In this document: positions 26,458-62,917 of the stretch, piece after piece
Numbering within the stretch: the stretch's first letter is position 1
Layout of the letters: every line of letters starts with the position of its first letter
Assembly: GCA_041690105.1 (NCBI GenBank)
Contig: JAWLHX010000001.1
Location: 14,939-78,938 of the forward strand
Length of the DNA: 64,000 nt
Direction: 5' to 3'
DNA from: Phycisphaerae bacterium
GTDB taxonomy: Bacteria; Planctomycetota; Phycisphaerae; FEN-1346; JAACEH01
Translations under genes and position numbers: made by a program
Notes under the pieces: generated by a model
Databases searched by the model: none
Seen by the model: the letters and a program-made list of their open reading frames with translations, nothing else
Told to the model about the DNA's origin: nothing

Positions 26458-26892
26458 GTTCTTAGTCTCCTTAGCCATATCAACGACGGACGTGGATTGT
26501 GTCTGTTGCCCCAAATTCTGCATGGACAATACATGCACTTCTTGAAATTGTCAATATAGAGTCTTCCCCTTTTATTAAGTTTTACTATCCTCTGTTGCCA
26601 ACTGTTACAGCGCACTCCTGATGCAACAACCAAGCACATGACTAGGGGCATGATTACCTTAAGAAGTTTCTGTTCCGCGCCTTAAAGATGATCGGCAGCC
26701 GAATTAGCCTTGATATTCATCTCTAATAGCATTATCCTCACACCCACTCGACTGGCCACTGGAGAATCCTGGTAATCGGGTAGAGTCGAGATCTGGCGCG
26801 GCGGTGTAGGCAGGGCATATCTGTTACCGGCCCTTTCGGTTGCCGGTGCCTCACTATCTCTGCCGTGCTCCGTTTCCAGTATCCCGCTCACC

Positions 26893-26925
26893 GAACCGGA
26901 CGCGCGGTTTTCCCGCATCCGGCTC
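26893..26925 (-). ncRNA. Group II intron domain V
   Basis: Near-consensus 33-nt hairpin gagccggaugcgg-gaaa-accgcgcguccgguuc. Confidence 0.75.
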
Positions 26926-27133
26926 TCGGACAAGGCCCGACGCCCTTCGCTCACGAGTCGCTGACAGGCCGCGCCTGGAGCCGAAAGAGCCCCAGTTCTT
27001 GATAGAGGTACTCGTCCGGGTATCGTGAGGCCCCAATCGGCTCGCCCTGCGGCGTGCCGCGTCCTTGGTCCTTGTTACGGGTCGTTCGCTGCTTCCGTCC
27101 ATGGTTGTCCGTTTCTTCCACCGGTACCCGTAG

Positions 27134-27667
27134 TCACATCTTGACAAGCTTGAGAACCTGCCGGTCGCTGATGCGGCGGGTCACGGAGGTCATCAGTTCA
27201 CCGTGGGGGATGCTGTCGAAGTAACCGCTCAAGTCTGCGTCCACCACCTCCCTGTGCCAGCCATCGAGCAACGTCATGACCTGTCTAATAGCATCATGAG
27301 CGTTACGTCCGGGTCGGTAGGCATACTGCTCCGGCGGCAGGTCCGTCTCGAAGATCGGCCCCAAGACCAGCACTGCCGCCATCTGCACGACGCGATCACG
27401 GACCGTCGGGATACCCAAGGGCCGTTGCTTGCCGTCCGGTTTGGGAATGTAAACCCGCCGGACAGCCTGCGGACGATATTCCTTCTTCCTGAGTTCCTCC
27501 GTCAGTTCACCCAGCCACCGTTCCACCCCGTACAGTTCGATCCCGTGGAAGTCCTGGCCGCCCACCCCCGCCGCACCGCCGTTACCCGGCTTCGTCGGTA
27601 CTACGGGGCCTCTCCGCCACCCCAAGCAGCCTGGCCTGTCCCTCGCGGGTCGCCAGTTGAAGGTCAC
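27134..27667 (-). pseudogene. Group II intron reverse transcriptase/maturase, truncated
   Basis: Encodes only RT motifs 0-4: [34 protein letters not shown] ... [13 protein letters not shown] ... [15 protein letters not shown] ... RQVLKLVKM, then stop. No YADD. Immediately after the stop the same frame reads ...PDEYLYQELGLFRL, resembling the extreme C-terminus of IEPs, so this is an in-frame internal deletion. Confidence 0.8.
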
Positions 27668-28124
27668 GCGCCTTCACCGCTTCGGGTTTCCCGTGTTGCG
27701 TTCGATCTCCTCTGTCGGCATGCCGTCGCCACTACCCCGGCGGGATCGTCAGGTTCTATCGCTCATTCTTCGCCTGACGACGGCGGCCTTCCCCGTTACA
27801 CGGCCGGGTCGGCTCCCGCATTGTCCTTTTCGAGGCCTGCTCAGCGTTCACTCACGTTACGGCCTGTCGACTTGCCGAGTCGCCCAAGGCGACCCTTTAC
27901 ATCAGAGGTTTCGGCAATTTCGTTACCTCCATTGCCGCTCCGATTGCTACCGGCTGGAGCGATCAGTTGCCGGGCGGGATTGGCCCGCTGGAGCTCGACA
28001 CCTTTTCACGGCACACCATGTAAAACGGACCCGCCTAGGGAGGATAATCGGCGTATAATTTGGGCCCACCCCAGCGGCCTCCGATCTGGTATGCATTACG
28101 CACACCAGATGAAGGAGGCAGAGG

Positions 28125-30227: not shown

Positions 30228-30577
30228 TTACCTCATTTCCTCTGCTGGCAACTCCCTGCGCAAGGACTCGCAAGGTCGGACAACCCTCACAGCCCGGAGG
30301 CCGCAGACAACCGGCGGTCTCCGCCCCGTCTGTTGCGAGCACAATTGTCGTGACAGCGTCACGACAGTCCCCTTCAACCACACCTAATTCCGAATACTGG
30401 CCAGAACAGCCAGCCCCCGGACTGTTCGGCGCGTCTTGGCATGATGATCGGGTGGAATTATAGAGTCTGCAAGCATCTTTCACAAGCATTCCCCTTCACC
30501 CGACTTCGCCAGCATCCTACAGGTAGCGATCTGGAGATTCGCTTGGCAACCATGTCGCCTTCTGGCATAATCCCGGC

Positions 30578-33500
30578 ATGGCCACCTTAGATCGCCCAGC
30601 AACTATCGGTCCCGCCCAGTTTATCTCCAAGTGGCAGCGCGTCGCCCTTCCGGAGCGGGCCGCAAGCCAGGAGCATTTTCTGGACCTCTGCCGGCTGCTG
30701 GGCCAGCCCACGCCGGCGGAGCACGATGCCACGGGAGCGGAATACACTTTCGAGAAGGGCGTCAGCGTTACGGCCGGGGCCTCAAAAGGGGCCAAGGGCG
30801 ATGGCGGCTTCGCCGACGTCTGGTGGCGCGGCAAATTCGGCTGGGAGTACAAGCGCAAGGGCAAATACAAGGACCTTGCCGATGCCTACCGCCAGCTCTG
30901 CCAGTACCGCGAGGCCTTGGAGAATCCGCCGCTGCTGGTCGTCTGCGACATCTCGCGCACCGAGATTCACACCAACTTCACCGGCACCGCCAAGCAGGTC
31001 CACACCGTACTGTTGGAGCAGATGGATCAACCGGAGAGCCTCTCGCTGCTGCGCCGCGTCTTCACCGCGCCCGACAGTTTCCGCCCGACGATCACCGTGC
31101 AGAAGGTCACCGAGCAGGTGGCCCGTGATATCGCCCACCTGGCCCAGTGCCTGCGCGAGCGCGGCCACGAGCCCCACGCCGCCGCTCATTTCCTGATGAA
31201 GTGCATGTTCTGCCTGTTTGCTGAAGACGTGGGCCTCTTGCCGGGCAACCTGTTTTCGCGCATCCTCGACACTTGGCACAATCAGCCGCTTGATCTGCAG
31301 AAGCGCCTGGCGGAGCTTTTCACCGCCATGAGTCGTGGCGGAGCCTTCGGAGTCGAGGCCATCCCGTGGTTTAACGGCGGTCTGTTTGACGACACGCCGC
31401 CTATCGAATTGACGAGCATTGAGGCTGAGGCCCTTCGCGCTGCCGCCCGGCAGGACTGGTCGAGCGTCGAGCCGGCCATCTTCGGCACGCTCTTCGAGCG
31501 GTCGCTTGACCCGTCGAAGCGAGCCCAGATCGGCGCCCACTACACCAGCCGCGACGATATTCTGCTCATCGTCAACCCGGTGGTCATGGCCCCGCTGAGG
31601 CGTCAGTGGGCCGGGGTTCAGCAGGAGGTCGAGCGGCAACTTGCCCGCCGCAAGGCCCTCGACCCCCGAGACAGGAGCCGCAAGGCCGACGCCACGCGCC
31701 GCACCGTCAGCAAGGCCGTCAGTAAGGCCATTCAGGACATGCTGCACCAACTGGCCGCCGTCCGCATACTCGATCCGGCCTGCGGCTCGGGCAACTTTCT
31801 CTACGTGGCCATTCAGCAACTGCTGGAGCTGGAGAAAGAGGTTATCACCTTTGCCGCCAAGCCGGAAATCGGCATCGGATTCTTCCCTCACGTGCGGCCC
31901 ACTCAACTGAAGGGGCTGGAGCTTAACCCCTACGCCGCGGAACTGGCCCAGGTGGTCATCTGGATAGGCTACCTGCAGTGGATGCGCGACAACGGCTTCA
32001 ACATGCCGCGCGACCCGATTCTCGAACCGCTCCAGTCCATCGAGTGCCGCGATGCTATTCTTGACCTGCCGCCGATAACCGGCGGGCTGGCCGCGGCCGG
32101 GGGCACGCAGGCGGCCTCGCCCAACGTTCTGACAACGCCGGCCGAGTGGCCTGAAGCGGACTACATCATCGGCAATCCGCCGTTTCTGGGCTCCAAGGTC
32201 TTCCGCCAGAACGGCCTGACGGATGATTACATTGGGGCCATGTACGCTGCCTACGATCTGCCGAAGACAAGCGACCTGTGCTGCTACTGGTTCGAGCAGG
32301 CGCGACGGGTGATCGAGCGCCGTCCGCACGTGCGGGTGGGGCTGCTGGCGACGCAGGGCATTCGAGGCGGGGATAATCGGAAGGTTCTGGAGCGGATCAA
32401 GAAGACGGGCGACATCTTCATGGCCTGGAGCGACCGCGAGTGGGTGCTCGACGGCGCGGCGGTGCATGTTTCGATGGTCGGGTTTGATGCCGGCAATCAG
32501 ACGGAGCGGCGACTTGATGGCCACGACGTCCAGTCAATACACGCCGACCTGACATCCGCCACCGATACGACTATCGTTCGCCGACTGTCGGAGAATCGTG
32601 GGATTGCCTTCATGGGCGATACGAAAGGCGGGGCGTTCGACATTCCCCGCGCAGAGGCACGGTGGCTACTTGCGCAGCCGAATCCGACGGGCAAGCCAAA
32701 CAGTGACGTGGTTAGACTATGGGTCAACGGCAGCGATGTCACCAGACGGCCGAGAGCCATGTTCATCATCGATTTCGGCTGTGACATGCCAATGGGCGAG
32801 GCGGCGGGCTATGAAGGCCCGTTCAAGGCAGTCGATACATACGTCAAGCCTGAGCGCATCAAGAACCGTCGCCGCGCCTATGCCGAACGATGGTGGATTC
32901 ACGTGGAACCGCGACCGGCGATGAGGGCATCCCTGCCTTGCCAACGATACCTTTGCACACCGAACGTAACCAAGCACCGTCTATTCGCATGGCTTTCCGC
33001 AGAAGTCTTGCCCGACCATCAGCTGATTGCTTTCGCCCGCAGCGACGACTATTTCTTCGGTGTCCTGCACTGCAGCATTCATGAATTATGGGCACGGCGG
33101 ATGGGTACGCAGCTTCGCGAGGTGGAATCAGGATTCCGTTACACGCCAACGACCTGTTTCGAGACCTTTCCGCTGCCCTGGACGCCGGGCAAGGAGCCAA
33201 CCGACAGCCCGCTTCATGCCCGCATCGCCGAGGCCGCCCGAATTCTGAACGAACAGCGCGAGCGCTGGCTCAATCCGCCAGAATGGCTGGACGAAGTAGC
33301 GGCAGCCGTCGACCGCGAGGATGACTTCCACGACGTGCCGGTAAATGTCCGCCCACTTATCCGGCAGTCGGCGATCATGGCCCGGGCCGCAAATCACCGG
33401 GAACTGAAGCGCCGCACACTCACCAATCTCTACAACGAGCGACCCACCTGGCTGCGCCTCGCCCATCAGCAGTTGGACAGGGCTATGCTGGCCGCCTACG

Positions 33501-33673
33501 CCTCCACCGACCCGGCGGGCGAGTGGAACGAGACTTGGGCTGAAGCCTGGCTCGACACCGGCGCCGGCCAACCCCTGCCGTCAGATCATCCCTTAATGGC
33601 ACGCCGCAGCGAGATTGATGAACGCGTCCTAGAGAACCTGCTGCGGCTCAATCAGACGCGGTCAGCACGGTGA
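30578..33673 (+). CDS. MmeI-family Type IIL restriction-modification enzyme (single-polypeptide endonuclease plus gamma-class N6-adenine methyltransferase plus TRD)
   Basis: N-terminal nuclease region GFADVWWRGKFGWEYKRKG...YRQLCQYREALENPPLLVVCDISRTEIHTNF aligns with MmeI GFVDLFWPGILLIEMKSRG...VLVCDFQRFRLTD, with D-x(n)-ExK intact. Also GAHYTS, motif I LDPACGSGNFL and motif IV IIGNPPFLG. Confidence 0.85.
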   Translation: MATLDRPATIGPAQFISKWQRVALPERAASQEHFLDLCRLLGQPTPAEHDATGAEYTFEKGVSVTAGASKGAKGDGGFADVWWRGKFGWEYKRKGKYKDLADAYRQLCQYREALENPPLLVVCDISRTEIHTNFTGTAKQVHTVLLEQMDQPESLSLLRRVFTAPDSFRPTITVQKVTEQVARDIAHLAQCLRERGHEPHAAAHFLMKCMFCLFAEDVGLLPGNLFSRILDTWHNQPLDLQKRLAELFTAMSRGGAFGVEAIPWFNGGLFDDTPPIELTSIEAEALRAAARQDWSSVEPAIFGTLFERSLDPSKRAQIGAHYTSRDDILLIVNPVVMAPLRRQWAGVQQEVERQLARRKALDPRDRSRKADATRRTVSKAVSKAIQDMLHQLAAVRILDPACGSGNFLYVAIQQLLELEKEVITFAAKPEIGIGFFPHVRPTQLKGLELNPYAAELAQVVIWIGYLQWMRDNGFNMPRDPILEPLQSIECRDAILDLPPITGGLAAAGGTQAASPNVLTTPAEWPEADYIIGNPPFLGSKVFRQNGLTDDYIGAMYAAYDLPKTSDLCCYWFEQARRVIERRPHVRVGLLATQGIRGGDNRKVLERIKKTGDIFMAWSDREWVLDGAAVHVSMVGFDAGNQTERRLDGHDVQSIHADLTSATDTTIVRRLSENRGIAFMGDTKGGAFDIPRAEARWLLAQPNPTGKPNSDVVRLWVNGSDVTRRPRAMFIIDFGCDMPMGEAAGYEGPFKAVDTYVKPERIKNRRRAYAERWWIHVEPRPAMRASLPCQRYLCTPNVTKHRLFAWLSAEVLPDHQLIAFARSDDYFFGVLHCSIHELWARRMGTQLREVESGFRYTPTTCFETFPLPWTPGKEPTDSPLHARIAEAARILNEQRERWLNPPEWLDEVAAAVDREDDFHDVPVNVRPLIRQSAIMARAANHRELKRRTLTNLYNERPTWLRLAHQQLDRAMLAAYASTDPAGEWNETWAEAWLDTGAGQPLPSDHPLMARRSEIDERVLENLLRLNQTRSAR

Positions 33674-40780: not shown

Positions 40781-43147
40781 TTACTGTTCGAACGTCAACC
40801 CGCCATCACCGGCCATATCCACCAGCCGGTCGGTATTCTCGGCAGTCTTCTCCGCCGCCTTGGCGGTCCGCTCCGCGGCCGATGCACCGCCGATGCTGAG
40901 GCCCTGCAGAGCGACGGCGCTGAAGGTGCCGATGGTCGCGAACTTCGACTGCACCTCGGCCACGCCCTTGGCCAGCCACGGGAACATATCCGTGTTGGGC
41001 TGTATCTTCGGCCCGCCCTGCTTCGCCCCGCCTGGCTTGCCCGGTGCCTCTTGCCCCGCCGGCGTCTGCTTCTTCTTCGTCTCGGCGATGGCGTCCTGCC
41101 ATTCCTTCCGGGCCGCGTCAACTTCGTCCTGGGCCGCGGCGATCCGCTGGTCGTATTCATCGTCAAGGGCCTGCTTTTTGGCCTCCTGCTCGGCCGTGAG
41201 CTGGTCCATGACGGCATTGTGCAGCGATTCCTCCTGACGACGTTCGGCGTCGCGCTGGGCCTCGCGGGCCCGGACGGCGCCATTGGCCTGCTCGTCAACC
41301 TTCTTGTTCTCCGCCTCCAGCCAAGCGTCGGCCCCGGCGTTGGCGGTATTGGAGTCGAAGCTGTCGTCAAAGAGACCCTTCAGCCAGTTCCAGGACTTCG
41401 AGACCTGCGCCCCCGCCCAGTTCCAGGCTTTGCCGATGCCCTGGCAGAACCGCGTCCAGGTGGTCGAGAGGAAGCTGGTCGTTTCGATCCAGGCAATCTC
41501 CAGCCCGTGCCAGACCGTCTCGGCCGCCCGCACCGCTCCGTAGAAGGCGTCGTAGGCCAGGCGGATGAAGAAGTTGCGGAAGTCGAGCCATAGCTTCGAG
41601 AGCCAGGCGATACCCTTCTGCCACTGGAGCTTCAGCGTCAACCACAGCACCTTGGCCGCCAGACCGATGTCGCCCGAAGCCAGGGCCGCACCGATGGCGC
41701 CAAAGGCCTCGCCCGCGTCGGCTGCCAGATCGCCGAAGACGCCCTTCAGCCATTCCAGAGCCTTGCCGCCCGCGCCGGTCCAGTAGAGGATGGCCGCACC
41801 AAGCGCCACGACGCCCACAATCACCAGGCCGATGGGCGAAAGGATCGCCCCGAGAATTGAGCCCGCCACGCCGAGCACCGTGCCCAGCACTGTGACAATA
41901 GTTGCCAGCCCGCCGATGGCCGTGGCCACCACGCTGGCGGCCAGCCCGAGGCCGATGAGTACCGCGCCCACTGCCGCCACGCCGACCGCCACTTTGGCGA
42001 TGATGACCACCAACGGCTTGTTGGCCTTGACGAATCCGGTCACAAAGCCCGCCGCTTTGCTCAGCCAGTCAGCAATGTCCGAAATGGCCGGTGCCAAAGC
42101 GTCGCCGATAGAGAGGGCAATGCCCTCAACCGCCGACCAGAACCGCCGCAAGGCTCCGCCGATGCCGGCATCCATCTCCGTGGCCGTCCGCGCCGCCGTG
42201 CCTGCCGCATTGTCGATGGCCTCGTTCAGCCGGTCGAATGACGCCCCCGTCAGCTTGGCTGCACCGGCAATGGCCCGGTCGCCGAAGAGTTCCGACAAGA
42301 GCGACACGCGCTCGGCCTGCCCCATGTTCTGCATGGCCTGGCCCACATCCGAAAGGATCGCCGAGACCGTCCGCAGGTTGCCGCCGGCATCGGTTACAGC
42401 CACGCCCATTCCTTCCAGCGTCTTCTGCACCTGGGGATTGGCGATCTGGAGCATGACCCGCTTCAGGGTGTTGCCGGCCATGGAGCCCTTGATGCCGAAG
42501 TTGGCCAGTGCTCCCAGCGTCTTGGCGGTCTCCTCCAGCGTCAGGCCGTAGGTCGAGGCCACCGGGGCAGCGTACTTCATGGACTCGCCCAGATCGGTGA
42601 TGGTCTGGGCGGAGCCATTGGCCGTGGCCGTCAGCACATCGGCCACGCGGCCCATCTCGGCAGCCTCCAGATCGAAGGCCCGCAGCGACGCTCCGGCGAT
42701 GTCGGCGGCCTCCGAAAGCTCGACACCCGTAGCCCGCGAGAGGTTCAGGATGTCGCCGATGGAGGCGTTGATCTCGTCCGACGAGAATCCCGCCCGCCCG
42801 AGTTCGGTCATGCCGGCGGCCACCTGGGCGGCGGTGAAGCTGGTGGTGCGGCCCAGTTCCTTGGCTGTCTCGGTGAGCATCTCAAACTGTTCGGCCGAGG
42901 CCCCGGTGACGGCCTTGACCGTCCGCATCTGGTCGTCGAAGGCCATAAAGACGCGGGTCGCCAGGGCGAAGCCGCCGGTCATGGCCGCCCCGGCAGCGAA
43001 GACTCGCGTGCCAGCCGAACGCAGCGTGCGGCCGAAGGCCTGAAGCTTCCGCTGCGCCGCCCGCAGCCCGCGCACGAGCTTTGAGTCGTCGGCGAAGAGC
43101 TCGACGAAGGCGCGACCGGCGCGGATGGAACCAGCGCTGTTTGCCAT
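40781..43147 (-). CDS. Phage tail tape measure protein (TP901-type core)
   Basis: FTAAQVAAGMTELGRAGFSSDEINASIGDILNLSRATGVELSEAADIAGASLRAFDLE...TDLGESMKYAAPVASTYGLTLEETAKTLGALANFGIKGSMAGNTLKRV, Gly-rich TM helices and C-terminal coiled coil. 788 aa. Confidence 0.85.
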   Translation of the reverse strand: MANSAGSIRAGRAFVELFADDSKLVRGLRAAQRKLQAFGRTLRSAGTRVFAAGAAMTGGFALATRVFMAFDDQMRTVKAVTGASAEQFEMLTETAKELGRTTSFTAAQVAAGMTELGRAGFSSDEINASIGDILNLSRATGVELSEAADIAGASLRAFDLEAAEMGRVADVLTATANGSAQTITDLGESMKYAAPVASTYGLTLEETAKTLGALANFGIKGSMAGNTLKRVMLQIANPQVQKTLEGMGVAVTDAGGNLRTVSAILSDVGQAMQNMGQAERVSLLSELFGDRAIAGAAKLTGASFDRLNEAIDNAAGTAARTATEMDAGIGGALRRFWSAVEGIALSIGDALAPAISDIADWLSKAAGFVTGFVKANKPLVVIIAKVAVGVAAVGAVLIGLGLAASVVATAIGGLATIVTVLGTVLGVAGSILGAILSPIGLVIVGVVALGAAILYWTGAGGKALEWLKGVFGDLAADAGEAFGAIGAALASGDIGLAAKVLWLTLKLQWQKGIAWLSKLWLDFRNFFIRLAYDAFYGAVRAAETVWHGLEIAWIETTSFLSTTWTRFCQGIGKAWNWAGAQVSKSWNWLKGLFDDSFDSNTANAGADAWLEAENKKVDEQANGAVRAREAQRDAERRQEESLHNAVMDQLTAEQEAKKQALDDEYDQRIAAAQDEVDAARKEWQDAIAETKKKQTPAGQEAPGKPGGAKQGGPKIQPNTDMFPWLAKGVAEVQSKFATIGTFSAVALQGLSIGGASAAERTAKAAEKTAENTDRLVDMAGDGGLTFEQ

Positions 43148-49711: not shown

Positions 49712-51787
49712 TTACGCCTCGCCCTTGGCCTTTACACCGCCCCGCGGGTCCTGCAGAGCCACGCCGAAGTCGTGATAACCGCGCATCTGGACGCCGAGGA
49801 CGTTGAAGTCGGCCTCCGCCGTCTCGATGGTGGGCGACTCCTGGCCATTGAGGAACGCCACCTCGATGACCGGCAGGTCGCCCGGGTCGGCCAGCAGGTA
49901 CCAGGCTTTTGAACTTGCGCCCGTGTAGCGGCTGTTGCTCAGGTAGCGGCTGACCTCGGTCCGGAACTTCCCGGCGTGCGGGTTGGCCACCGGGTACTTG
50001 GTGCTGGAGGTCGTATCGCGAATCTCCAGACTCTTGTGCAGCACCATGGCCATGGCCGACAGAGCCGTGGGTACCAGCAGGATGCTGGGCATGATGCCGA
50101 TCGGCTTGTTGTCGGCGTCGACCTGATCCATGAAGGTCACTTCGCCCTTCGTCAGACCATCGATCCCCAGCACTGTGTCGGCGCCACTGACGTAATTGGC
50201 GTTACCGGCGGAGAAAAAGCTGCTGTTGGCCAGGAATACCGACCAGAAGACGTCGTTGATCTTCAGCCCCGAGCCGCGGCCCAGCTTCCTGGGCACCGTG
50301 GTGATGGCCCCGAGATCATCATTTATGATGTCGCGGCGATCCACTGAGAGCATCAGGCCGTAGGTGTCGGCCCTGTTGGCGTAGCTTTCCTCCCCGAGCG
50401 TTCCGTGCTTCAGTTCGCCGCCGGGGGCCACGATTTCATACTGGTCCTTGCCGACCAGCCGGTAGCTGGTGACCGTCTTGAAATCCCGCACGCTGCGCAG
50501 AGCGCAGATGTTCCGCCAGACCCGCTCCACGCTGAAGAAGCCATCAAGCAGAAACTTGTTGGCCACGTTCGACAGGATGCCGCCGATGTCGACCGTCGAG
50601 AAACCAGCCTGAATGTCGGCAAAGGCATGGCGCAGCACCGCCCGGCTGTCGCGGAACGTGCGGCCCGTGTAGCCGTTGGCCCAAGCGGCCTCCAGCAGCA
50701 GTTCCTGCAGCCCCAGGCCACCCCGGAAGCGCTTGTCAGCGGCGTCGAGGGTCTTTTCGTCGAACTCCTTCTCCACGCCCTCAAACCTGGCGGAGATCAT
50801 GCAGGCCGCTTCCAGCAGACGCCCGCTCATCGGGTTATCCGGTACGTGGGCCGCAGGCGCCTTGGGCCTTGAGGCCCTGAGTACTTCCAGTTCTGTCTTC
50901 GTCTCGTCCCAGCCCTCCTCGATGGCTTTGGCCTCGATTTCGGCGAACCTGCCGTTGCAGATCCGCCGGATGGCGCTGATGCGGTTGGTTTCAAGCAGCG
51001 CCCGGGCACGGATCTCCTTCACCGGATCGGCCGCCTCCACCGTGCCAGCGGTCTGCTGCTCCAGAGTCTGAACAGGGGCCGCCACCTGACCCTTGCCTTC
51101 GCCGGTCGCCGTCTGCTCGTGGCCTTCCACACTGTTCTGTTCCGTGACAACCTCGGTCGTCTCGTTCGTCACCACGTCCATATGCTCTTTCTCCCTGGCG
51201 GCTCCTGTGCCCGCCGCGATACTGGCTGACGTCTGATCGTCCGCCCCGTTGCCCACGAAACTCACTTCCGACAGTTGCGACCGCCGAGCCACATTGATCG
51301 GCCCGCTGACCTCCCTGCCGTTGACATTCAAGGTCCTGCCTTCGGGAACGAACTCCACCTCCTGCACGCTCGCTCCGATTGAGGCCTGCCACGGATAGCC
51401 ATTTTCGGCGTCGGCCACCACCTCACGGGCCGCGGCACTTGTCGAACTGACCACACCGGTCACCCGTAGCCGGCCACCGAGTACGTTCACAGCCTCCAGA
51501 TGGCCGACCCGCGCCGTGCGATTGTGATCGAGGTAGACCTTGGCTCCGCCACGGATCGACAGGCCGTCCAGATCGACAACCACCGGAAAACGCCAGCCCG
51601 CGAGGGTCAGGGGACCGCCGGTATAGGCATCCATGTGGAACTTCCGCGGCCGGGCGGGCATGCCTTCGCCACCAGTGACAGCCTCGGCCGCCTCAATATT
51701 GATGTCGGCGCTCAGCGTCAGTTCACGCGGCACGTCGGGTTTCTCCGTCAGCATTCTGGTCATCTTCATCCTTCTCCTCGTTTTCAT
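49712..51787 (-). CDS. Prohead protease - scaffold-like linker - HK97-fold major capsid protein fusion
   Basis: N-terminal ~200 aa are protease-like, followed by an acidic low-complexity linker. The C-terminal ~400 aa carry capsid-like segments (...ARFEGVEKEFDEKTLDAADKRFRGGLGLQELLLE...SYRLVGKDQYEI...). Confidence 0.7.
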   Translation of the reverse strand: MKTRRRMKMTRMLTEKPDVPRELTLSADINIEAAEAVTGGEGMPARPRKFHMDAYTGGPLTLAGWRFPVVVDLDGLSIRGGAKVYLDHNRTARVGHLEAVNVLGGRLRVTGVVSSTSAAAREVVADAENGYPWQASIGASVQEVEFVPEGRTLNVNGREVSGPINVARRSQLSEVSFVGNGADDQTSASIAAGTGAAREKEHMDVVTNETTEVVTEQNSVEGHEQTATGEGKGQVAAPVQTLEQQTAGTVEAADPVKEIRARALLETNRISAIRRICNGRFAEIEAKAIEEGWDETKTELEVLRASRPKAPAAHVPDNPMSGRLLEAACMISARFEGVEKEFDEKTLDAADKRFRGGLGLQELLLEAAWANGYTGRTFRDSRAVLRHAFADIQAGFSTVDIGGILSNVANKFLLDGFFSVERVWRNICALRSVRDFKTVTSYRLVGKDQYEIVAPGGELKHGTLGEESYANRADTYGLMLSVDRRDIINDDLGAITTVPRKLGRGSGLKINDVFWSVFLANSSFFSAGNANYVSGADTVLGIDGLTKGEVTFMDQVDADNKPIGIMPSILLVPTALSAMAMVLHKSLEIRDTTSSTKYPVANPHAGKFRTEVSRYLSNSRYTGASSKAWYLLADPGDLPVIEVAFLNGQESPTIETAEADFNVLGVQMRGYHDFGVALQDPRGGVKAKGEA

Positions 51788-53427: not shown

Positions 53428-53502
53428 GACGCGGGAGTTGGACGCGAACCAGCGCAATCGCCTTTTGAGCCCCGCGCTCTGCCAATTGAGCTATCCCGCA
53501 AG
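53428..53502 (-). tRNA. tRNA-like element with encoded CCA; anticodon stem does not pair (probable pseudo-tRNA)
   Basis: Minus strand: TGCGGGA-TA-GCTC-AATTGGCA-GAGC-G-CGGGG-CTCAAAA-GGCGA-TTGC-GCTGG-TTCGCGT-CCAAC-TCCCGCG-T-CCA. Acceptor (7 bp with one G.U), D-arm and T-arm fold well. The anticodon loop is CU-CAA-AA. Positions 39-43 (GGCGA) cannot pair with 27-31 (CGGGG). Confidence 0.35.
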
Positions 53503-60437: not shown

Positions 60438-60635
60438 TTAATCCAGTATCCGCTCCGAAGTTGTCGCCCGCTGACCGCAGTAGCGGCAATGGCGATAACG
60501 GATAATGCGGCCGCTGGCCCGAGTGGTATGGTCCACGGGCATGTCGCGGCAGCCGCACTTGCGGCACTCCAGACCGCTGGTCTTCTCCGGCGGCCACTTC
60601 TTACGCGTCACATCTGACGTCGTCACCAAATTCAT
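60438..60635 (-). CDS. Cys4 zinc-ribbon protein (Ogr/Delta-like architecture)
   Basis: CRKCGC...x22...CRYCG; 65 aa. ATGA coupling to the terminase stop. Confidence 0.5.
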   Translation of the reverse strand: MNLVTTSDVTRKKWPPEKTSGLECRKCGCRDMPVDHTTRASGRIIRYRHCRYCGQRATTSERILD

Positions 60636-62917
60636 CTCCTCCTCAGGTCATCCTGCGTGTACCGCTTCCGCTGCCGCGCGGGTTTCTCTTCCATGCCCGG
60701 TGCCCGCACGCCGCACATCGAGGCCGCGGCGGCGCAGCCCACCAGGCAGTCGAACCAGTGGTTGTCGGGCTTGGATGGCCGTAGCGACCATTCATGCACC
60801 ACGCGACCATGGCCCTGCGTCTCGACCCACGTTTCGGAGTGAGCCACATGTTCGGCAAGCAACTCGTGATCGCGACCCTTGCGGCCGAAGATCGATAGCG
60901 AACCCGGATCGCCGGCGGCCGTGGCAAAGCCGCTGTGGACGAACGATTTCCAGTAGTTGACGTCCACCGCAACGTGCGGGAACTCAGCCGTCCTGCCGAC
61001 GTTCGGCACGTACCAGAAGTGACCGTGCACTTCGCCGGGCTTGCGGGCGTAAGTTGACATGGGCTTGCGGCCGCTCTTGATGCCCACGCCCTTGGAGAGC
61101 ATCATCACGGCTCCGCCGACCTTGTGCTTGGCGTCCGCCACGAGCCCCGGCTTGTACCCAATGTCCACCAGCAGCCGGTCGATTCTCGTCAAGCCATCGC
61201 CGCGCTTGAAGTCCCGCCCCAGTTGCGTGGAGATGAGCCGCTCCAGCCCGGCGCGTATGGCGCCGTCGCCGCCCATGCCCGGAAAGGCCCGCCCCAGCGT
61301 CCTGCGGGCCTGATACATGGTGAAGTAGCCCTGCGACTGCTCCGGAAAAGTGCCATAATCAACCACATAGCCGGTGAAATTCTCCTCCCAGGCGCAGATG
61401 CACCAGTAGAGCAGCTTTTCGTGGACGTCGATGAACATGGTCAGCCTGGTGGCCGCCAGCGGCACCTCGCCACGGGCTCGGCCGTTTATCTTCTCCATCA
61501 CCTGCTCGGGCCGCAGCAGATCGTCGTGCACCTGCTCCTGCATCGGCTCGTTCTGGTATTCGGCGAAGAAGGCCTCTTCGTCCCGCAGCTTCAGGTTCAT
61601 GGCGTGCTGCAGGGCCGAAAGTTCCTTCCTGGCGTCGAACCGCTCCGGCCAGGCAACCACGGCACCGGCGTCCATGGCCTCGCGATTGGCACGATAAAAC
61701 TCCGTTGCCTCGTCACCGCCATGACCCTGTCGCAGGCTATCGGCCCTGATCGTCGCGTACTGCTGCCACAGCCGTTCGTTTGCGGGGAAGCTATAGATCA
61801 GCTTGGTGCATTCAGCCTGCCATTCCGGGCACTTCTCGTGATCAAGCACCTGGTCGGCGAGGTCGGCTTCATAGATCTTGGTGCAGGTCAGCACACCGGC
61901 GATCTCTTCGCCGGGCCCGGCCAGACCCAGCACGTCACCGTTCAGCAGCTGCAGGCGATACTTCGTCTGAGTCGGCGAGCGGGCCGACTGCCGTGTCTGC
62001 GGATCATCCAGCAGCACCAGCGAGGGCCGAATAGTCGAGCCGTCCATGCGGGTATGCTGCTGGCCGCGCATGTTGGCGTCGAGGCTGGTGATGGTGATGA
62101 TCGAGCCGCTTGATGGGCTGGTCTCCATTCCCGCCTCGCGCAGGGCCTGCGGCAGGTGTTCGGCCTCCACGGTCGGAAAGACCAGCTTGTCCTGACCCCA
62201 CAGGAGGTGCGTCAGACGCCCACGGATGTGCTGCTGGAGTTGCCGCTTTGATGAATTCTCGAGGCTGCGCAGCGGATAGACCGCCTCCGGGAAGTCAGCC
62301 AGCAGGCCGGGATTCTCGAGGATATACTTCTTGATCGGCAGCAGCAGATCCTTGGCCCGCTCGTCCGAGCCACCGATCAGGCAGACAAACGGCCGGGAGC
62401 CGATCAGCACGGCCCACAAGGCCGAGAGGCGGGCCAGCGTCGTCTTGCCAGACCCACGCGGCATGGCGAAAGCGAACAACCCGCCATCCTTGACCGCCCG
62501 CTCGATCTTCGACAGCACCTTCAGATGGTCGTCGCTCCAGTTCCTGTAGAAAGCCCGCGGAAAATAGGTCTCGCAGAACAGACGCAACGAAGCACTTGTG
62601 GCCAGCCGCCGCTCATAGTCCTCGATCTCCGGGATGGGGAAGATGTCCTGGGCGGCCTTGGTACCGGCCCGGTTCTTTTCGGCCTGCCGCCGCCTGGCCT
62701 CCACGTAGTCGATGGGCCTTGTCCGCGGCCGGTCCAGTTCACGCGCCAGCCATGCGGCGTAGCGCACCAGGTGGATACGCTTTCCATCGCCCACACGAAA
62801 GGCAGCCTTATCCATCTGCCGGCGAAGGCGCGAACGATCTATCACCGTGCCCAGGGGCGTGGCGTTGACGATTTGCAGCAGTTCCGTCTGCGACAGGTTG
62901 GTCACATCAATCGGCAC
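60632..62917 (-). CDS. Phage terminase large subunit (GpA-like)
   Basis: Walker A-like FAFAMPRGSGKTTLARLSALWAV. The 761-aa size matches lambda gpA-type terminases. The N-terminal ~70 aa contain a Nu1-like wHTH (HLVRYAAWLAREL). Confidence 0.8.
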   Translation of the reverse strand: MPIDVTNLSQTELLQIVNATPLGTVIDRSRLRRQMDKAAFRVGDGKRIHLVRYAAWLARELDRPRTRPIDYVEARRRQAEKNRAGTKAAQDIFPIPEIEDYERRLATSASLRLFCETYFPRAFYRNWSDDHLKVLSKIERAVKDGGLFAFAMPRGSGKTTLARLSALWAVLIGSRPFVCLIGGSDERAKDLLLPIKKYILENPGLLADFPEAVYPLRSLENSSKRQLQQHIRGRLTHLLWGQDKLVFPTVEAEHLPQALREAGMETSPSSGSIITITSLDANMRGQQHTRMDGSTIRPSLVLLDDPQTRQSARSPTQTKYRLQLLNGDVLGLAGPGEEIAGVLTCTKIYEADLADQVLDHEKCPEWQAECTKLIYSFPANERLWQQYATIRADSLRQGHGGDEATEFYRANREAMDAGAVVAWPERFDARKELSALQHAMNLKLRDEEAFFAEYQNEPMQEQVHDDLLRPEQVMEKINGRARGEVPLAATRLTMFIDVHEKLLYWCICAWEENFTGYVVDYGTFPEQSQGYFTMYQARRTLGRAFPGMGGDGAIRAGLERLISTQLGRDFKRGDGLTRIDRLLVDIGYKPGLVADAKHKVGGAVMMLSKGVGIKSGRKPMSTYARKPGEVHGHFWYVPNVGRTAEFPHVAVDVNYWKSFVHSGFATAAGDPGSLSIFGRKGRDHELLAEHVAHSETWVETQGHGRVVHEWSLRPSKPDNHWFDCLVGCAAAASMCGVRAPGMEEKPARQRKRYTQDDLRRR

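Follow-up and report, generated by a model that had tools for sequence, protein, structure and literature searches.

A predicted stand-alone MmeI-family restriction-modification enzyme from Phycisphaerae, a source of a probably new recognition specificity

Introduction

MmeI from Methylophilus methylotrophus (TCCRAC, 20/18) is the prototype of the Type IIL restriction-modification enzymes, a family defined as having no accompanying methyltransferase and no conserved neighbouring gene. MmeI residues D70, E80, and K82 are completely conserved in the family and E51 is highly conserved; a completely conserved Glu precedes helix 2 (MmeI E25), and mutating D70/E80/K82 abolishes cleavage (PMC2731913). 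The published specificity code covers positions 3, 4, and 6 of MmeI-like sites, and position 2 in part. These enzymes serve in long-reach tagging and as a platform for specificity engineering, and a new natural member usually recognises a site not seen before. Here, we describe an MmeI-like gene at positions 30,578 to 33,673 of a 64,000-nucleotide stretch (hereafter, the window) of a Phycisphaerae bacterium genome assembly (GCA_041690105.1, contig JAWLHX010000001.1, positions 14,939 to 78,938). Judging from its homology, the product is very probably a functional MmeI-family (Type IIL / IIG) restriction-modification enzyme that acts on its own, and its only real interest lies in the probably new specificity that it offers.

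Results

At the gene level, 30578..33673 (+) is one unbroken open reading frame (ORF) of 1031 codons plus stop, starting with ATG at the first start possible after the upstream stop. Its GC content at the three codon positions is 0.66 (GC1), 0.47 (GC2), and 0.77 (GC3); a GC3 this far above GC2 is a coding signature, as a true gene would show in a GC-rich genome. The antisense ORF of 580 amino acids (aa) is the usual high-GC shadow. The protein is full length when compared to its homologues, since relatives of 1000-1050 aa cover 98-100% of it. An initial annotation had proposed an intact MmeI-family Type IIL gene, and this is borne out by the unbroken 1031-codon ORF and by five MmeI domains in order (Table 1).

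MmeI (PDB 5HR4) was the sole strong sequence match in the PDB, with E=3.8e-47 for the single sequence and E=6e-67 for a profile of 72 homologues. With BLASTP, residues 57-865 aligned collinearly to MmeI 49-821 over 858 columns (E=1e-54), and the subfamily profile aligned unbroken to MmeI 345-836, including the whole target recognition domain (TRD; domain E=3.9e-30). For residue mapping, we used phmmer, profile hmmsearch, and MAFFT L-INS-i. MmeI residues 49-836 were rebuilt from the HMMER output, and the numbering was validated by 17/17 residues named in papers being correct. The residue-for-residue match to MmeI claimed in the initial annotation is a real alignment, but it was overstated, as identity is 25% over those 858 columns.

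All the strings quoted for the protein were found: DVWWRGKFGWEYK at aa 80-92, VVCDISRTEIHTNF at aa 121-134, and GAHYTS, LDPACGSGNFL, and NPPF at the positions in Table 1. The string quoted for MmeI, VLVCDFQRFRLTD, occurs in the 5HR4 sequence and pairs with our protein where it had been placed. A disrupted catalytic motif had been named as grounds for refutation; in the closer alignments, D80/E90/K92 are intact and match MmeI D70/E80/K82. Besides, E59 pairs with MmeI E51. E26 is invariant in the subfamily and starts a helix (26-41); it is the likely equivalent of MmeI E25, placed by helix position, as the direct alignment to MmeI covers only residues from 49 on.

Profile searches covered the entire protein, and their scores, like the PDB match, lie well outside what chance could produce. 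The PADLOC Type IIG model REase_MTase_IIG (PDLC03627) matched aa 12-1030 with E=3e-259. In the full-length Pfam scan, MmeI_Mtase scored 96.4 bits and MmeI_hel 58.1 bits (aa 200-270), and MmeI_N reached 41.9 bits (cut-off 27) when aa 1-200 were scanned alone. Residues 57-360 align to MmeI 49-353, the two segments differing by one residue in net length, and within them the spacer of ~145 aa is collinear with MmeI 156-300 and helical in the model. In the C-terminal bundle, TLTNLYNERPTWLRLAHQQLDRA pairs with MmeI 848-885, with the conserved pattern TLTxLY...H..LD.

At the structural level, an AlphaFold2 model built on the 72-sequence alignment reached a predicted local distance difference test (pLDDT) of 85.1 and a predicted template modelling score (pTM) of 0.80. 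Its top Foldseek match was again 5HR4 (E=3e-29, template modelling score (TM) 0.74 on the 751 ordered residues of MmeI, 863 columns). The next fold was CamA at 7e-13, with PglX/BrxX, BpuSI, and M.BseCI lower. The MmeI crystal is without the nuclease domain. In our model, this domain has the expected alpha/beta core (alpha-beta-beta-beta-alpha-beta...). Strand 76-83 contains D80, and E90/K92 lie where strand 87-91 ends, a placement that fits the description of MmeI D70/E80/K82 by Morgan et al. 2009. The modelled C-terminal bundle is all-helical, with seven helices between 878 and 1030 and pLDDT ~90.

Conservation was assessed in two sets: 108 close homologues, sharing 58-81% identity, and 52 distant full-length representatives, sharing 37-55%. 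D80/E90/K92 and NPPF were invariant in both sets; G319, A320, H321, and T323 of motif X and D399, P400, A401, G403, and S404 of motif I were invariant in the 72 homologues. Mean column entropy was lowest in the nuclease domain (0.84) and highest in the TRD (1.61). A conserved nuclease together with a variable TRD is the pattern expected for conserved chemistry and diversifying specificity. The gene was one intact ORF at 74/80 genomic loci; one locus (L067) was frameshifted, and the remaining loci were not confirmed as a single ORF.

These results bear on a first alternative, in which the enzyme acts only as a methyltransferase in vivo: the nuclease would be silenced or inactive, or the gene unexpressed, leaving an orphan or epigenetic methyltransferase like the YeeA/DnmA-type MmeI relatives. 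Nuclease-inactive relatives such as YeeA do exist, some native MmeI-family genes are reported to be inactive, and the only name that NCBI gives to the homologues is "class I SAM-dependent DNA methyltransferase". However, YeeA-type proteins are without PD-ExK and are flanked by YeeB/YeeC, whereas our protein has D80/E90/K92 and E59, none of which varies in 160 homologues, and we found no YeeB/YeeC-like helicase neighbours adjacent to the gene. Moreover, the nuclease domain is the most conserved part of the enzyme, contrary to a methyltransferase-only role. We consider this alternative unlikely; the methyltransferase-only label rather hides the restriction function of these homologues.

The family to which the enzyme belongs is large. 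HMMER, run exhaustively against 1.84 billion cluster representatives, retrieved 13,560 clusters (at 50% identity) with E<=1e-3, and 2,127 with E<=1e-30. Metagenome-assembled genomes of Planctomycetota (among them Phycisphaerae, Pirellulales, and Gemmataceae) supplied nearly all of the close relatives; a few came from Chloroflexota, and two were on IMG/VR viral contigs. The best match among GTDB representatives was 77% identical. To our knowledge, no member of this Planctomycetota-centred clade has been characterised, and our search of the literature on Planctomycetota methylomes found nothing directly relevant.

Table 1. Coordinates of the MmeI-like gene, its domains and motifs, and other features of the window
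Feature	Position	Strand	Basis or details
MmeI-family bifunctional restriction endonuclease / N6-adenine DNA methyltransferase (predicted)	30578..33673	+	PADLOC, 5HR4 match, homologue coverage
N-terminal PD-(D/E)XK endonuclease domain, aa 1-165	30578..31072	+	Pfam MmeI_N, model
Catalytic motif D80-X9-E90-X-K92 (DVWWRGKFGWEYK)	30815..30853	+	Alignments to MmeI D70/E80/K82
Helical spacer, aa 166-310	31073..31507	+	Pfam MmeI_hel, MmeI alignment, model
Gamma-class N6-adenine methyltransferase domain, aa 311-640	31508..32497	+	Pfam MmeI_Mtase, motif order X, I, IV
Motif X GAHYTS, aa 319-324	31532..31549	+	Identical in MmeI
Motif I LDPACGSGNFL, aa 398-408, S-adenosylmethionine (AdoMet) binding	31769..31801	+	MmeI: FDPACGCGNFL
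Motif IV NPPF, aa 533-536, catalytic for adenine N6 methylation	32174..32185	+	MmeI: GNPPF
Target recognition domain, aa 641-870, ends FPLPW (aa 864-868)	32498..33187	+	Subfamily profile vs MmeI
C-terminal helical bundle, aa 871-1031	33188..33670	+	Model, weak Pfam MmeI_C, TLTNLYNERPTWLRLAHQQLDRA alignment
Antisense ORF, 580 aa	30782-32524	antisense
Promoter-like site	30543..30571	+	Consensus scan
Schlafen/AlbA_2 protein, 572 aa	28768-30489	-	Schlafen/AlbA_2 + HATPase_c_4, COG2865-like
ORF, 223 aa	33695-34369	-	No family match
Gamma-class methyltransferase / Type IIG-like protein, 1063 aa	34375-37569	-	PADLOC Type IIG E=1e-46
RHS-repeat protein, 2354 aa	16940-24007	-	DUF6531 + RHS repeats
ORF, 853 aa	23974-26538	-	No family match
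Group II intron	26780-27990	-	Rfam
Group II intron domains D1-D4	27852-27990	-	Rfam, 94.7 bits
Group II intron domain V/VI	26780-26927	-	Rfam, 43.9 bits
Intron reverse-transcriptase ORF, 176 aa	27134-27667
Low-GC mosaic island	~16 to 38 kb
Prophage-like region	~38000-64000	-	GC 0.63-0.67
Tape measure gene	40781-43147
Capsid gene	49712-51787
Large terminase gene	60632-62917
tRNA-like match	53429-53500	-	Rfam, 29.8 bits vs gathering 29, E=0.037
SIR2_2 + TPR + PIN protein, 1455 aa	54969-59339	-	PIN-TPR-GreABC type, GC 0.58

Recognition specificity

We mapped the base contacts of MmeI onto the protein for positions 3 to 6 of the site, with the three alignment methods agreeing: E751/N773 (position 3) correspond to N796/H814, A774/R810 (position 4) to Q815/R854, T752/L805 (position 5, opposite the target A) to V797/L846, and E806/R808 (position 6) to E850/G852. 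The predicted base-contact residues are N796, H814, Q815, L846, E850, G852, and R854. Within the subfamily, these columns covary. Where the 751-equivalent is R, its partner is S, D, A, or C. H never accompanies R; its own partners are N, T, Q, I, or M. As for the 806/808-equivalents, R accompanies E, and D accompanies G. In these alignments, the contact columns behave as coupled specificity determinants, mirroring the published code.

Read through that code, the contacts suggest a tentative site ...(C)G-A-(C or A/C), with N6-methyladenine (m6A) on the penultimate A. Position 3 would be C, a weak call, as H has a single precedent among C-recognisers and N has none at the first residue position. 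Position 4 would be a purine, given R854, and is more likely G, which is favoured by the bulky 774-equivalent Q815. Position 5 is predicted to be A, the methylated base. Position 6 would be C or a relaxed A/C, as E850 is kept and the guanine-contacting Arg is replaced by G852. For positions 1-2, the TRD-N contacts Y642/K645 correspond to F678/G680, and A723/F737/Y738 to V756/W773/I774. We make no call there because these residues are mostly invariant in this subfamily, and because the two alignments covering this region disagree for Y642 and A723.

The site prediction as a whole is weak, since neither E850/G852 nor N796/H814 is found among the characterised enzymes. The initial annotation had described specificity in this family as predictable from TRD contacts; for our enzyme this holds in part, and not for these two combinations. 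Natural variants are available in the clade. In near-identical scaffolds, the readout of positions 6 and 4 was E-G-R in 56 clusters (ours included) vs the MmeI-like E-R-R in 41, and position 3 varied naturally as N/H vs R/S.

In-frame insertions in homologues

Some homologues carry additional sequence inside the gene. Of the 120 closest protein clusters, 12 reach 1290-1410 aa because a Y1_Tnp transposase (IS200-like or RAYT-like, PF01797) is inserted in frame, in the loop immediately ahead of NPPF or directly behind FPLPW (P0022, P0031, P0032, P0059, P0067, P0068, P0070, P0077, P0084, P0085, P0088, and P0113). Pfam places Y1_Tnp internally in three insert-bearing proteins, with 26-40 bits vs a cut-off of 23. 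At the DNA level, the insert in locus L032 (767-4636) is flanked by REP-like 36-nt (12-codon) units with the hairpin CCCAGCC-GCCCCC-GGCTGGG. The 6/6 copies of this unit in 12.6 kb lie inside the gene and share a strand, and no break interrupts the 1289-codon frame.

Many further homologues contain repeat-derived peptides alone, from several unrelated repeat families and in the same three surface loops. These loops correspond to aa 494-526, 636-650, and 868-884 of our protein, and two of them are of low confidence or disordered in the model. The nuclease and methyltransferase motifs are intact in the insertion-bearing homologues. The window gene itself carries no such insertion, and we found no REP-like repeats inside it. 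Rickettsia palindromic elements are the nearest known precedent for in-frame RAYT/REP insertions, and our literature search for in-frame RAYT insertions found no paper describing them.

Genomic neighbourhood

Upstream of the gene, a promoter-like site (TTGGCA, a 17 nt spacer, and TG-CATAAT) ends 6 nt before the ATG; it has 10/12 consensus matches plus the extended -10 TG and was called by consensus match alone. No Shine-Dalgarno sequence is visible before the ATG, and the mRNA may be leaderless or near-leaderless. Across an 88-nt intergenic region lies the divergent Schlafen/AlbA_2 gene. Its product matched a PHROG annotated as "DNA helicase" (E=3e-38), and it is not conserved beside homologues.

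We compared the neighbours with those at the 80 related loci. None of the window neighbours (the Schlafen/AlbA_2 ATPase, the 223-aa ORF, the second Type IIG-like gene, RHS, and the reverse-transcriptase fragment) recurs beside homologues. The sole match was a weak one (27%) to the methyltransferase-like neighbour in locus L077, and it fell within the MmeI-like gene of L077 itself. When the flanking ORFs were clustered de novo, no conserved partner gene emerged at these loci. The commonest flanking genes were a tyrosine integrase (7/80) and a primase-like protein (5/80). Flanks with only low-frequency mobile-element genes indicate that the MmeI-like gene is a self-contained, horizontally mobile unit.

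This context also bears on the possibility that the protein is the methyltransferase/specificity component of a multi-gene defence system, namely BREX (PglX), DISARM (DrmMI), or MADS. PADLOC DrmMI models match the methyltransferase-TRD half (E=7e-66), PglX and MAD2 models match weakly, and PglX/BrxX appears in Foldseek at E ~1e-11. Against this, the best full-length model is Type IIG, NCBIfam BREX and MADS models score 15-26 bits vs cut-offs of 400-900, and PglX and DrmMI are without the N-terminal PD-ExK domain that our protein has. Models for BrxC, PglZ, DrmA, DrmB, and other partners matched none of the nine neighbouring ORFs (15.7 to 39.2 kb). With no neighbour recurring at the 80 loci and no partner from flank clustering, we rejected this extremely improbable option.

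A composite restriction-modification locus could also be proposed, formed with the convergent 1063-aa and 223-aa genes, where the neighbour would, for example, methylate the second strand. They are immediate neighbours, with convergent stop codons 21 nt apart, and the 1063-aa protein carries gamma-class methyltransferase motifs (GAYYTP, FDPACGSGAFL, and NPPW). However, its resemblance to the MmeI-like protein is limited to such generic motifs (29% identity over 164 aa), and the pairing occurs at 0/80 related loci, bar the weak match in L077. The GC3 of the MmeI-like gene (0.77) differs sharply from that of the 1063-aa gene (0.63) and the 223-aa ORF (0.57), which suggests separate acquisitions. 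We regard a composite locus as very unlikely, and the methyltransferase-like neighbour looks like an independent system. The 223-aa ORF lies 5 nt downstream of the 1063-aa gene and has a D...E-x-K-like motif (LDIRFER...YAFEAKRL); the two may form a split methyltransferase-specificity/nuclease system.

Further away, the RHS gene, the 853-aa ORF, a group II intron, and the restriction-modification genes form a low-GC mosaic island. The 853-aa ORF is directly upstream of the RHS gene on the same strand and overlaps its start. The intron-encoded protein looks truncated or decayed, as its reverse-transcriptase ORF has just 176 aa. A sharp GC step at ~38 kb leads to a prophage-like region (65% GC), and the MmeI-like gene is located just outside its tail end. 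On whether the gene might be prophage cargo, we found no relatives of the last tail-side prophage gene in IMG/VR, no PHROGs match for the boundary ORFs, and no tRNA or att site. Within the prophage, a weak tRNA-like Rfam match was not called by ARAGORN, and the 1455-aa SIR2_2 + TPR + PIN gene, of lower GC, looks like a phage-carried defence gene.

Discussion

We consider the gene to encode a functional stand-alone MmeI-family enzyme with high, though not full, confidence. Domain order, catalytic and AdoMet motifs, predicted fold, and the apparently stand-alone context fit the published family definition (PMC2731913, PMC4833311), so the Type IIL assignment of the initial annotation is well supported.

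Several points weigh against this conclusion. Identity to MmeI is just 25%. Pfam MmeI_N is missing from the full-length scan list, MmeI_TRD falls just under its cut-off (25.8 bits vs 27), and MmeI_C is below its own (18.8 bits). The E850/G852 and N796/H814 combinations are absent from characterised enzymes. A second methyltransferase-containing gene lies 700 nt away, and characterised members have none nearby. Activity is predicted from homology, for this protein as for every close relative, and Morgan et al. report some native MmeI-family genes that were inactive and needed repair.

By homology to MmeI (PMC2731913, PMC4833311), the TRD and the methyltransferase domain would clamp an asymmetric site of 6-7 bp and flip out the penultimate adenine. 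In host DNA, the NPPF/AdoMet site would methylate the flipped adenine at N6, on one strand only. Incoming DNA that is unmodified and has at least two sites would be cut roughly 20/18 nt downstream by the N-terminal PD-ExK domain, with AdoMet as the required cofactor for cleavage. The 145-residue helical spacer would hold the PD-ExK domain ~two helical turns from the site. Since nuclease and spacer follow those of MmeI throughout and differ by one residue net, the reach is most likely that of the family, 20/18 nt.

The enzyme is an ordinary further member of a large, well-understood family. It leaves our understanding of MmeI-family enzymes unchanged, and its value is only practical: it extends the family into an uncharacterised Planctomycetota clade, with contact combinations (E/G at position 6 and N/H at position 3) beyond the published code. 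More tentatively, and with considerable doubt, the clade could be read as a whole: an uncharacterised, Planctomycetota-centred clade of MmeI relatives of ~1000 aa, in which our enzyme, if active, would probably recognise a new site whose last base may be relaxed, and in which the loop insertions may be more than neutral parasitism. If true, the clade would offer natural variants already suited to extending the MmeI specificity code.

Comparison with known systems

BpuSI and other Type IIG/IIC enzymes (PDB 3S1S) also combine an N-terminal PD-ExK nuclease, a gamma-class methyltransferase, and a TRD in one chain. Yet the BpuSI fold matches ours much more weakly than MmeI does (E=6e-10, TM 0.26-0.29), and it cuts 10/14, about one helical turn nearer its site. 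In BREX PglX/BrxX, DISARM DrmMI, and B. subtilis YeeA/DnmA, the methyltransferase, TRD, and C-terminal region are homologous to those of our protein, but these proteins are without PD-ExK and depend on partner genes, which were not found near our gene.

MmeI is the closest system. It has the same five-domain order, and both proteins share D-X9-E-X-K, GAHYTS, DPACGxGNF, NPPF, and an FPxP-like TRD end. Our protein is 112 aa longer, with a ~30-aa helix insertion before motif I, a disordered loop (496-526), and a C-terminal bundle longer by ~65 aa. The base contacts also differ, with N796/H814, Q815, and G852 vs E751/N773, A774, and R808 in MmeI, and because of this we do not expect its recognition site to be TCCRAC. 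Finally, the characterised MmeI-family enzymes (NmeAIII, RpaB5I, CstMI, ApyPI, and others; Morgan et al. 2009, PMC2731913) range from 908 to 1184 aa, and our protein falls within this range. It comes from an apparently stand-alone gene without conserved neighbours at the 80 related loci, and, as in those enzymes, its TRD is the variable domain, and its contact positions covary as the code describes.

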